64,000 bases of DNA from NCBI GenBank assembly GCA_000004985.1, contig GG738845.1; one strand, written 5' to 3'. Below, in pieces: positions 15,768 through 19,033 of this stretch; within the stretch, counting starts at the first letter, position 1, and the number at the start of each line of letters is the position of its first letter. This DNA comes from Naegleria gruberi. Taxonomy: Eukaryota. The notes beneath the pieces were generated by a model that had not been told where the DNA came from, did no database searches, and saw only the letters and a program-made list of their open reading frames with translations. Made by a program: the position numbers and the translations under genes.

Positions 15768-17675
15768 TTATTTATTATTCTTTTTTGCTAAGGCAAGTTG
15801 ACGACAATATTCAAAACGTTCCTTACAATCTTTTGCTGACTTTCCTGGAACAATCTCAGAAATTTTTTCCCATTTAGAATCACCCTTGAGTTCCTTGAAT
15901 TGTCTAATACCAGTCTCTAGAGCTTTTTGTTGAAGTGCTGTCCAATTTTCAGTTCCACTCGAGCTAGAATCAACATTATTTGTTTGATTATTGATATTAT
16001 ATTGTTCGTCCATTTTTTTTTCCTCTTCTCTTTTTTTGGCTGTTTGATTCTTTGAATTTGTCTTTTGAAAATCTCCAAAATAGTCTTTTTCTTCTCTCTT
16101 TGGTAGAACGTCTTGAATAGATGTCATTTTACGAATTTCTCCTGTTTTTTGTTGAACTTCTTCTGGTGTCTTGGTTTTAACATACTCAGCTACTTTGATC
16201 CATCTTTGTGGAGTGCCACCAGGAAACATTGATATAGCCTTTGCTAAAAGACTCAATTCCTCATGATTCCACTCTGAAGTCTTTTGTTTTTCATTCTTTT
16301 TTTGTTCTTGGGTTTGTTGTTTCTTGTCTTCTTCTTTTTTCTTGACAATTTCTCTCACCTTTGTCTCTAAATCATAAAAAGCAGTCACAAACTTTGAATC
16401 ATCTTTTGTTTTTTGAGCCTCTACAAATGTTGGTTCTAACTTTTGTACCATTTTTACCAAATTCTCAATGGGTAAATGGGTCAATACAAATTCAACATCC
16501 TCTGGTCTAATATTCGTCATTTTGTCTTGTTTTTTAACTGGCTTCATCAAAAGTAACAAATAAGGATCACACATTTCTCTCATTCTCTTGATAGTTTGAG
16601 TTTTTTCCTGTTGTTTTCTTTCATTTTCCTCTTTTTCTTTTTGCTTTTTCTCTCTTTCTTCTTGCTCAACTTTTTTAATTCTTTCCTCTTCTTCCTTTCG
16701 TTCCTTTTCTTCTCTTAATATTCTTTCCAACTCACGCTTGTTCTTTTCTTCCTCCTTTCTCTTACGCTCTTGTTCTATTTCTTCATTCTTTTTCTTTACT
16801 CTAGGATCATTTTTACGAGCAAGTTCAACCAAATCTGTGAGCTTTTTCTTCTCTTCCTTTTTTCTTTTTTGATTAATTTTGTCGTTTTGACGTTTCATCC
16901 AACGACGTTCCTCTCTAGAATCAGCAGTTGATTCGTCATATTCACTTTCGCCACTGAAGTCACGCCAACTTTTAAAGGTTGACCAAAAAACATAAAATCT
17001 TTCCAATTCCTCAAAAGAAGTTTTCATATCACCTAACTTTGGAACATTTGGGAAAGAACGTGACCATTTAGACCATCTCTCAAAAACTGGAGCAAAGGTG
17101 GAGAAGAATCTCTTTTGTTCCTCTTCTTCAGTAAGAGGAGTTGAAGGAGCAGAGTAAGTTGGAATTGAATCATCAAAAGGTTCACTTGAATCATAACATA
17201 ATTTCTTTCTCTCATCTAATAACGTTTCATATGCACGAGTTAAAGCTTTAAACATGGTATCATCTCCACTAGTTGTTTCACCATTTTCTCCTGTTTTTTT
17301 GAAATGGTCAGGGTGATACTCTTTTACTTTCTTCTTGTAGGCTTTACGAATATCATCAGGAGTTGAAAGCCAACGTTTTTCCAATCCTAATATTTCATAA
17401 TAGTCATAATCTTCCTCTTCTTTTTCGTATCCTTCACTATTCTTTATCATTCTCTTCTTTTTCATTAATTTTTGAACATCTACACCAGCATTAATTTCGT
17501 CATCATCAGAATCATCAGAGTCAGCCGATGAGGATTGTGATGTTTTTTTACTATATTTGTTATTAACATCATGAGTTTGTTGAAATAACATTTGGAAGAA
17601 TCCACGGCCAATATATTGTTCAACTTTACTCAGATCCAACTCATTATTGACAGCGTCTTTTGTTGATGCACTCAT
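15768..17675 (-). CDS. DNAJC2: DnaJ homolog subfamily C member 2 (zuotin/MPP11-like ribosome-associated J protein)
   Basis: J domain with HPD (DYYEILGLEKR...KKKVKEYHPDHFKK), a central charged region, and two C-terminal SANT/Myb-like domains (WNHEELSLLAKAISMFPGGTPQRW.. and WTALQQKALETGIRQF..KWEKISEIVPGKSAKDCKERF). The true ATG is at 17675 (MSASTKD). The track start at 17831 lies upstream of it. Confidence 0.85.
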   Translation of the reverse strand: MSASTKDAVNNELDLSKVEQYIGRGFFQMLFQQTHDVNNKYSKKTSQSSSADSDDSDDDEINAGVDVQKLMKKKRMIKNSEGYEKEEEDYDYYEILGLEKRWLSTPDDIRKAYKKKVKEYHPDHFKKTGENGETTSGDDTMFKALTRAYETLLDERKKLCYDSSEPFDDSIPTYSAPSTPLTEEEEQKRFFSTFAPVFERWSKWSRSFPNVPKLGDMKTSFEELERFYVFWSTFKSWRDFSGESEYDESTADSREERRWMKRQNDKINQKRKKEEKKKLTDLVELARKNDPRVKKKNEEIEQERKRKEEEKNKRELERILREEKERKEEEERIKKVEQEEREKKQKEKEENERKQQEKTQTIKRMREMCDPYLLLLMKPVKKQDKMTNIRPEDVEFVLTHLPIENLVKMVQKLEPTFVEAQKTKDDSKFVTAFYDLETKVREIVKKKEEDKKQQTQEQKKNEKQKTSEWNHEELSLLAKAISMFPGGTPQRWIKVAEYVKTKTPEEVQQKTGEIRKMTSIQDVLPKREEKDYFGDFQKTNSKNQTAKKREEEKKMDEQYNINNQTNNVDSSSSGTENWTALQQKALETGIRQFKELKGDSKWEKISEIVPGKSAKDCKERFEYCRQLALAKKNNK

Positions 17676-17698
17676 ATTTTTTTTCAACTTCAAAAATA

Positions 17699-19033
17699 AT
17701 GCCCAGCTTCTTCGCCGACATCTATGCAAGAAGGCAGGAAGGATCTCTTGCTTCCACAACCACACACAACAAGGAAAACAATATTTTACTAATAGATGAT
17801 GAAGAACAATATGATGATACTTCTGTTGCAAATCCCATCAATGATAATAATTTATTCACTACAAACAAGTACCATCAGGTTCAGAGAGCTCCTCAAATTT
17901 TAAATAACAGGAAGTGGTATACATGGATATTTCCAATAATTGCTTTTATTTTAATTATTTGGGTTGTTTTAGGTTATGTATTTGGATTTCTTTTACCTAT
18001 TATTATTTCTTCTTCGGAAACAGTATTCGTCAGAGTACTTCATAGTTTCTACTTTATTTTATTTTCGTTTATGTCTGTGTGTATTATTTATCCATTCATC
18101 AAGTGTATATTTACAAATCCTGGATTTGTATTTAAAGATGATAAAGTATGGCGACTTTCAAAGGATCAAATCAAACATTACAAAAAACGAGGACCTGGAT
18201 TTATTGCTGATTTGGAAAAGGAAATCAAACAAATTATGAGCTACAGAAATGAAATCAGAGATTTAATAAATGGATCACAGGAGGTTGAAGTGGACGAAAA
18301 TAGTCAGGAAATCCATCAAGAGGATTTATCATTCAATGATTCTTTAACGTCAGAATTGAACTCAAGAGGTCAAGGTATGTTATTATTTCTATCATAACTT
18401 CAACCTTAATCGATCATTTAGTTAGAATTTGCGAGAAATGTTGGATTAGAAAACCAGATCGTAGGTGAGTTGTTTAGTAGTACTTAATTATTGATTGTCA
18501 ATAGTCATCATTGCAGACAATTGAATTGTTGTGTTTTGAGAATGGACCACTTCTGTCCATGGTTCAATAACTGTATAGGATATTACAACCACAAATATTT
18601 CTTTACATTTCTTTCATGGATAGCCATTACAGGGTTTTTCATTGTTGCAACAATGTCTAAAGTCATGTTCAAGACACTTCAACAACATGGATCCCAAAGT
18701 ACATTTAATTTCTTTACTTTCAATAATCTATGGGTCTATATTTTGAGCTTTTGCTTTGGTTTCTCAATGTTTTTCTTTGCTGGCTATCATTTTAAACTTA
18801 TAATTTGCAATACCACTACCATTGAATCTTTAGATAAGGAGAGAAGATTATATGAACAACATCACTGTGAGGCTCCCTATGATATTGGTGTATTGAGAAA
18901 TATTAAATCAATACTGGGAGATAATCCAATTTTATGGCTTTCCCCTTTCCACATTGATTATGAGGGAGATGGATGCCATTATCCATTGAAATCATCCAAC
19001 AACTATGAGGTTGTTGCTTCAGTTGATAATTAA
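17699..19033 (+). CDS. zDHHC-type palmitoyltransferase. Three exons, approximately join(17699..18374,18422..18464,18505..19033)
   Basis: Exon 1 carries TM helices and a DPG-like 'NPG' motif. A 43-nt micro-exon encodes CEKCWIRKPDR. Exon 3 continues SHHCRQLNCCVLRMDHFCPWFNNCIGYYNHKYF, the CRD with a DHFC variant of DHHC, followed by more TM helices. Introns are GTATGT..TTTAG (~47 nt) and GTGAGT..CAATAG (~40 nt). First ATG is at 17699, and the track's earlier M is not ATG. Confidence 0.8.

Follow-up and report, generated by a model that had tools for sequence, protein, structure and literature searches.

We analysed a 64,000-nt stretch of the Naegleria gruberi genome (contig GG738845.1 of assembly GCA_000004985.1; hereafter the window), in which two intact genes, DNAJC2 on the minus strand and a zDHHC gene on the plus strand, lie head to head with their start codons 23 nt apart. 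The CAT at 17673–17675 is the minus-strand ATG of DNAJC2, and the plus-strand ATG of zDHHC occupies 17699–17701; read directly, the plus strand from 17670 to 17701 is actCATattttttttcaacttcaaaaataATG. The spacer between the two ATGs (17676..17698, 23 nt) has the sequence ATTTTTTTTCAACTTCAAAAATA. It is 87% A+T and lacks any G, in a window whose GC content is ∼33%. On the plus strand, the spacer can be divided into a T8 tract (which, read on the minus strand, is the DNAJC2 A-run), the seven nucleotides CAACTTC, and A5TA (the zDHHC A-run). Hence A8 plus T precedes the DNAJC2 ATG and A5 plus TA precedes the zDHHC ATG, such that the runs lie 1 and 2 nt, respectively, from their own start codons and 7 nt from each other.

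The DNAJC2 gene (15768..17675, minus strand) is, by ORF (open reading frame) and Pfam analysis, a single exon of 635 codons plus stop, beginning at the ATG at 17675..17673. Its product contains a DnaJ domain, a ZUO1-like zuotin homology domain (ZHD) and two Myb/SANT domains, all over the Pfam threshold, and the HPD motif is unchanged across the aligned orthologs (alignment A1). With its HPD-bearing J domain, ZHD and C-terminal SANT/Myb domains, the minus-strand gene is a member of the DNAJC2/zuotin (MPP11) family of ribosome-associated J-proteins. The protein is colinear with its orthologs from N. fowleri and N. lovaniensis (both 78% identical) and Willaertia (58%). The only N. gruberi entry found for DNAJC2 is a partial model of 455 residues (P0004) with a missing N terminus and internal gaps; it is 100% identical to our translation wherever the two align. 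A scan of JGI metagenomes for more DNAJC2 loci returned distant J-domain matches only.

The zDHHC gene, which encodes a palmitoyltransferase of the zDHHC protein S-acyltransferase family, is split into three exons. Exon 1 (17699..18374, plus strand) starts MPSFF and encodes transmembrane segments (TM) 1 and 2; exon 2 (18422..18464), flanked by GT..AG introns, encodes the start of the cysteine-rich domain (..VRICEKCWIRKPDR); and exon 3 (18505..19033) encodes the DHHC-type domain (Pfam PF01529) and TM3–TM4, and runs to the stop codon. Both introns, 18375–18421 (47 nt) and 18465–18504 (40 nt), end in TAG. The spliced product of 415 residues shows no gaps at either junction relative to an intronless ortholog (P0121), to which exon 1 also aligns gap-free, and after intron removal it matches PF01529 with E = 3e-26. 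The cysteine-rich domain lies between TM2 and TM3, with hydrophobic segments identified by eye in the translation. The tetrapeptide at 18548–18559 is DHFC, not canonical DHHC, and is unvaried in 4/4 Naegleria-clade orthologs. This motif keeps the catalytic Cys and the first His, with Phe in place of the second His, a residue that acts as a zinc ligand in solved DHHC structures. DHYC variants, e.g. that of yeast Akr1, are active. No N. gruberi database entry was found for this zDHHC, the best match being 56% identical, and public annotation of N. gruberi seems deficient at 15768–19033.

Several lines of evidence support the two start codons. A start-context matrix, trained only on 23 annotated genes of N. 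fowleri and N. lovaniensis, was used to score the 2275 ATGs of the window. The zDHHC ATG at 17699 scored 6.4 (top 1%) and the DNAJC2 ATG at 17675 scored 2.8 (top 5%), making these the two best-scoring ATGs between 17450 and 17950. Each is also the first ATG of its ORF to be flanked by an A-tract. All four zDHHC orthologs carry MPSF at the N terminus, which is also where the models annotated in N. fowleri and N. lovaniensis begin. For DNAJC2, a block kept out to Willaertia (L-x-L/M-x-K-VEQYIGRGFFQ; ..KVEQYIGRGFFQ) starts at residue 14. The positions given in the initial annotation (17675..17673 on the minus strand and 17699 on the plus strand, ∼23 nt apart) are thus exact to the base by sequence reading, the names DNAJC2 and zDHHC are borne out by the Pfam domains of both products, and the choice of start codons is upheld by ortholog N termini, the context matrix and the first-A-tract-flanked-ATG test.

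The initial annotation had also allowed for one of the genes initiating at a downstream ATG or being spliced from a distant 5′ exon. The next in-frame ATG of DNAJC2, at 17591, falls within the conserved block and scores −10.7, and that of zDHHC, at 18071, falls in the second hydrophobic segment and scores −13.4; initiation at either would delete blocks conserved across genera, from a poor context. A distant non-coding 5′ exon spliced on just upstream of the ATG finds some encouragement in a candidate DNAJC2 acceptor at 17689, TTTTTGAAG/TT (the slash marks the splice site), where a T-rich stretch comes before GAAG/TT. This GAAG/TT is the conserved part of the DNAJC2 upstream element described below. 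Against such an exon, the plus strand from 17654 to 17698 contains no AG, both verified introns have TAG rather than AAG at the 3′ end, and a DNAJC2 donor would have to sit antisense within the zDHHC coding sequence. We consider it very unlikely that either start has been mis-set in one of these ways. Barring a distant 5′ exon, the distance between the ATGs implies that the two transcription start sites are <1 kb apart.

An in-frame plus-strand ATG at 17666..17668, within DNAJC2 codons 3–4, was missed by the initial annotation. If zDHHC were translated from it, the coding sequences would overlap head to head by 10 nt. The reading frame does permit this, there being no stop between 17666 and 17699, and an open, in-frame ATG likewise lies upstream in the environmental ortholog. 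Yet the context of 17666 scores −12.4, at the 87th percentile from the top among window ATGs, and its use would require transcription to begin among the codons of DNAJC2. Moreover, neither N. fowleri nor N. lovaniensis has a counterpart of the extension: the invariant MPSF, at which their gene models begin, is preceded there by an in-frame stop or by an ATG in another frame. On these sequence comparisons, 17666 is probably not used by zDHHC, and we regard translation from this codon as unlikely.

The junction itself is real DNA and not an assembly artefact. Homopolymer tracts are frequent sites of assembly error, and elsewhere in the window two runs of exactly 50 N mark scaffold gaps (34916–34965 and 46242–46291), each within a long ORF or bordering one. 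However, an independent ENA metagenome contig (L001), equivalent to window positions 15524–18230, crosses the junction with 100% identity over 2707 nt and has the same spacer. A second contig from the same ENA sample, L015 (window 12210–14254), keeps an intron, so the sample represents genomic DNA; the idea that these contigs are transcripts was rejected for this reason. Exact-protein look-ups for transcript support likewise returned genomic contigs only. As for a silent pseudogene, neither ORF is disrupted (one has 635 codons, the other 415), and the HPD and cysteine-rich motifs are conserved. We consider misassembly at a homopolymer, or a dead partner, extremely unlikely. L015 differs from the window by three substitutions and a 4-nt indel (at 13655, 13653, 13637–13640 and 12744). 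Three of these four differences sit in an 88-nt divergent spacer (13623–13710); L001 is unchanged across the 23-nt spacer.

Conservation of the arrangement in related genomes had been suggested as a check, and we found the adjacency to be absent from every relative compared, namely N. fowleri, N. lovaniensis, Willaertia and an environmental relative. DNAJC2 faces an RFC subunit gene in N. fowleri (at 481 nt) and N. lovaniensis (at 212 nt), and an unrelated gene at 152 nt in Willaertia. The zDHHC orthologs have different upstream neighbours, at 819 nt and at 1097 nt, the latter with tRNA-His between, and in the environmental relative (L006) the upstream neighbour lies 168 nt from the conserved MPSF ATG. 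In N. lovaniensis, a tRNA-His(GTG) gene (L007 5848–5918) lies 83 nt upstream of the zDHHC start codon. Comparison of all the relatives' loci to the 64-kb window by tblastx revealed nothing in common beyond the gene itself. As judged from these genomes, the two genes are juxtaposed in the N. gruberi lineage alone, or at any rate not in the relatives compared. Because the adjacency is not conserved, nothing suggests a selected, co-regulated pair. DNAJC2 and zDHHC have unrelated functions, and the pair is no conserved regulatory module.

Compaction is evident throughout the window, as the initial annotation had noted. Long ORFs occupy ∼94% of the sequence, and convergent stop codons are as close as 0 nt. 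What does not hold is the description of the DNAJC2/zDHHC junction as the extreme case. In another head-to-head pair (48702–52464), comprising a PPR gene (minus strand, ATG 51056) and a methyltransferase gene (plus strand, ATG 51076), the ATGs are separated by 19 nt (51057..51075, TTTTTTTTTAATTTAAAAAAA), and this spacer is built alike, with a T-run and an A-run. The methyltransferase start is backed by three orthologs and by an N. gruberi model (P0167) that matches the window ORF with identity and coverage both at 100%; support for the PPR start comes from its position and a context score in the top 0.5%. These two genes are not adjacent in N. fowleri or N. lovaniensis. Based on best-guess start codons, the ATG–ATG distances for the ten divergent pairs of the window are 19, 23, 67, 87, 88, 91, 134, ∼238, ∼500 and ∼766 nt.

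Other types of junction are similarly tight. Convergent stop codons lie 0, 4, 11, 36, 56… nt apart, as at 13190/13191 (0 nt), 31580/31585 (4 nt), 48690/48702 (11 nt) and 15731/15768 (36 nt), the last being the stop of DNAJC2 and that of its convergent neighbour. Stops separated by 0–36 nt leave no room for 3′ untranslated regions (UTRs) and polyadenylation signals that do not extend into the neighbouring gene. In tandem pairs, the distance from stop to next ATG is often 61–87 nt. Compaction is thus general, affecting all intergenic types, and the 23-nt junction represents its lower tail, not a special device. Two further candidates for close divergent pairs were dropped. The first, 12209/12246, would have been a 36-nt pair, but ATG 12209 has a context score of −16.5; measured from the next ATG, 12158 (score 4.7), the distance is 87 nt. 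The second, an apparent overlap at 55622/55465, becomes a 67-nt spacer with the most likely JmjC gene start at 55397. The JmjC ORF remains open for ∼85 codons upstream of this probable start, antisense over the start of a DRC4/GAS8-like gene (ATG 55465; region 55397–55652), and choosing its first ATG would wrongly give a head-to-head coding overlap of 158 nt. Rfam and tRNA scans of the 64-kb window gave no matches.

Runs of A next to the start codon are a general feature of these genomes. Of 59 Naegleria/Willaertia start sites, 43 have an A-run of at least 5 nt directly before the ATG, and in 49 such a run is no more than 3 nt away. Start-site A-runs are 5–12 nt long in N. gruberi, N. fowleri, N. 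lovaniensis and Willaertia (the window plus L002, L004, L005, L007, L008 and L014). In some cases, namely DNAJC2 and citrate synthase of N. fowleri/N. lovaniensis and the JmjC gene at 55397, the run is displaced but still present 7–40 nt upstream. The start-context index of N. lovaniensis is the highest of all genomes surveyed in a preprint (10.64898/2026.06.25.734688). For zDHHC, the start-proximal context (17688..17698, plus strand) is CTTCAAAAATA, and the corresponding ortholog contexts are CATCAAAAA-ATG in N. fowleri and N. lovaniensis and CATCAAAACAAA-ATG in L006.

Within the 23-nt spacer, the only conserved element is specific to DNAJC2. This element (17676..17693, minus strand), TTGAAGTTGAAAAAAAAT, directly abuts the ATG. 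The pattern TGAAGTTRAAAAA occurs once in the window and once at the DNAJC2 locus of each of N. fowleri and N. lovaniensis, always in the sense orientation, and no other exact match was found in the ∼140 kb searched. Its A-run ends 37 nt (N. fowleri) and 19 nt (N. lovaniensis) before the ATG, and Willaertia DNAJC2 has a related GTTGAAAAAAAAATAA-ATG. Since the element keeps its A-run even away from the start codon, the A-run probably does more than provide a context for translation. The N. gruberi element and the distal copy of N. fowleri/N. lovaniensis were not aligned with each other by MAFFT, and hence the claim of an element rests on exact pattern search. A heat-shock element was considered and dropped, on inspection only, as the spacing of the TTC/GAA units does not fit. 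Upstream of N. fowleri DNAJC2 we also observed three copies of TTTGAAGT (L002 5711–5725, 5943–5957 and 5964–5971), two of which sit in a 15-nt repeat, AATTTTTATTTGAAGTT. These copies suggest a repeated binding site related to the conserved DNAJC2 element.

Sites of the E2F type (TTTSGCGC) provide another view of promoter position. Five were found versus 0.37 expected, ∼45–58 nt upstream of the ATGs of other genes (window 373–384, 4756–4767 and 62097–62104; L002 5525–5560; L004 5795–5830), and some are palindromic, TTTGGCGCCAAA. The enrichment of these sites at 45–58 nt from ATGs indicates that promoters lie near the start codon. In N. fowleri and N. lovaniensis, the start of the RFC subunit gene is flanked by conserved E2F-type copies, and related TTGGCGG/TTGGCGC motifs are seen in the spacers 13623–13710, 55398–55464 and 60990–61080.

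To gauge leader length, we counted upstream ATGs at 58 start sites. Their frequency is at background level from −21 outwards (17–19 per 20-nt bin, compared to 16–25 further out). Depletion is confined to the last 20 nt before the start codon, where it equals that of control triplets, and an upstream ATG lies within 30 nt in 16/58 genes. Upstream ATGs at background frequency beyond −20 are as expected if leaders are usually 20 nt or shorter. At the junction itself, an out-of-frame ATG on the minus strand (17719..17721, reverse-complement reading, within zDHHC codons 7–8) opens a 25-codon upstream ORF that overlaps the DNAJC2 start, limiting a clean DNAJC2 leader to ≤45 nt; on the other side, the ATG at 17666 caps a clean zDHHC leader at 32 nt.

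Since the ATGs are only 23 nt apart, each promoter has to draw on DNA that is transcribed or translated as part of the partner gene. To this extent the initial annotation stands. The two options it offered, overlapping 5′ UTRs or a minimal bidirectional promoter within the coding or UTR sequence of the partner, omit short leaders that overlap barely or not at all, and sequence features favour this third option, with two leaders of ∼10 nt. We propose, with a probability only a little above even (roughly 0.55), that the 5′ end of each mRNA lies in or beside its own A-tract, that the two units lie back to back or overlap by a few bases, and that any additional contacts fall on the first codons of the partner. 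In such a scheme, transcription would begin within or just upstream of each A-tract, yielding leaders of ∼5–20 nt. Initiation of the two units would then be back to back, or overlapping by a few nucleotides, in a single AT-rich patch that is probably nucleosome-poor. Any further core-promoter contacts would be made with the partner gene, on its leader and its first ∼10 codons, which are poorly conserved, and the spacer element TTGAAGTTGAAAAAAAAT would be the sole gene-specific upstream signal for which there is room. The second tight pair, with its 19-nt spacer and matching T-run/A-run layout, counts in favour of this A-tract arrangement, as do the general compaction of the window and the precedent of Giardia, where start sites have been mapped.

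Alternatively, transcription could begin 24–45 nt upstream of each ATG, inside the coding sequence of the partner, producing mRNAs with complementary 5′ ends. Each promoter would then lie wholly within the transcribed region of the partner, as in microsporidia and nucleomorphs. Two conventional leaders cannot fit in 23 nt, and the ATG-free stretches upstream of the starts would accommodate such leaders up to 45 nt (DNAJC2) and 32 nt (zDHHC), or 127 nt for zDHHC if an 11-residue N-terminal extension is tolerated. Elsewhere in the window, stop codons 0–11 nt apart already force neighbouring transcription units to overlap. Three observations argue against overlapping leaders: upstream ATGs are not depleted beyond −20 in the 58 genes, the A-tract adjoins the ATG in most genes, and in three species no conserved feature lies between the DNAJC2 element and the first ATG. 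We regard overlapping leaders as the main alternative, but as less likely than not.

Start sites within or beside the A-tracts must themselves be weighed against several points. Our literature search found no paper on Naegleria transcription start sites, promoters or leader lengths, and nothing usable on Naegleria UTRs or intergenic statistics. The argument from upstream ATGs is drawn from 58 sites, about half of which were predicted in this analysis, and base composition alone accounts for the depletion inside −20. The A-run could be purely a translation signal. Free-living Naegleria, unlike Giardia, is expected to have conventional RNA polymerase II machinery, and with a conventional pre-initiation complex footprint of ∼60–80 bp, two complexes would be mutually exclusive here.

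A broader proposal is that most RNA polymerase II core promoters of Naegleria consist of the ATG-abutting A-tract, serving as initiator and as a near-leaderless, poly(A)-like leader, such that two tracts placed back to back (∼20 bp) form a complete bidirectional promoter. We advance this tentatively and consider it rather doubtful. Were it true, the lineage-specific rearrangements behind the 23- and 19-nt junctions would amount to natural deletion experiments, in which ∼20 bp or less of upstream DNA serves two genes. Recent N. fowleri expression vectors employ ∼1 kb of upstream DNA, chosen empirically (PMC12845041). If each of these junctions does accommodate two functional promoters, a minimal promoter in Naegleria is tiny, which would aid vector design for this pathogen, and Giardia-like short-leader initiation would extend to a free-living discobid. 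The DNAJC2/zDHHC locus is a ready-made candidate for a minimal bidirectional Naegleria promoter.

Close packing of genes on this scale has parallels in several systems. Overlapping transcription in compacted nuclear genomes, those of microsporidia (e.g. Encephalitozoon) and nucleomorphs, was reportedly described by Williams et al. in 2005. As in those genomes, spacers in the window cannot hold promoters plus UTRs, and hence the transcripts or control regions of neighbours must overlap. However, the genomes of microsporidia and nucleomorphs are reduced, belong to parasites or endosymbionts and measure 0.4–3 Mb, whereas that of N. gruberi is ∼41 Mb with ∼15,700 genes, and its compaction is local rather than reductive. 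Gene order is often conserved among microsporidia, which cannot be said of DNAJC2 and zDHHC.

Giardia lamblia has an AT-rich, partly symmetrical initiator and leaders mostly <20 nt long (PMC3792122; PMC1885649), and adjacent genes can initiate bidirectionally from the same or overlapping sites (PMC3792122). The resemblance lies in the A/T-rich element adjoining the ATG and in the very short intergenic regions. In Giardia, though, start sites have been mapped, whereas those of Naegleria are deduced from sequence. The elements also differ, that of Naegleria being a pure A-run and that of Giardia AATTAAAAA-like. Furthermore, Naegleria is free-living, is placed in another supergroup, the Discoba (Heterolobosea), and has spliceosomal introns in many genes.

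Bidirectional promoters of animals, plants and fungi serve head-to-head pairs with start sites <1 kb apart (PMC2648788, PMC2194621). Like these pairs, DNAJC2 and zDHHC are two protein-coding genes on opposite strands with a common upstream region. The spacers of animal, plant and fungal pairs are typically 100–1000 bp, with CpG islands or shared transcription factor sites, and the pairs are often conserved and co-expressed. The Naegleria pair, by contrast, has a spacer of 23 bp, lacks conservation and brings together genes of unrelated function. Taken as a single locus, the junction is an ordinary consequence of genome compaction, and closely abutted divergent genes in a compact protist genome are an already known type.

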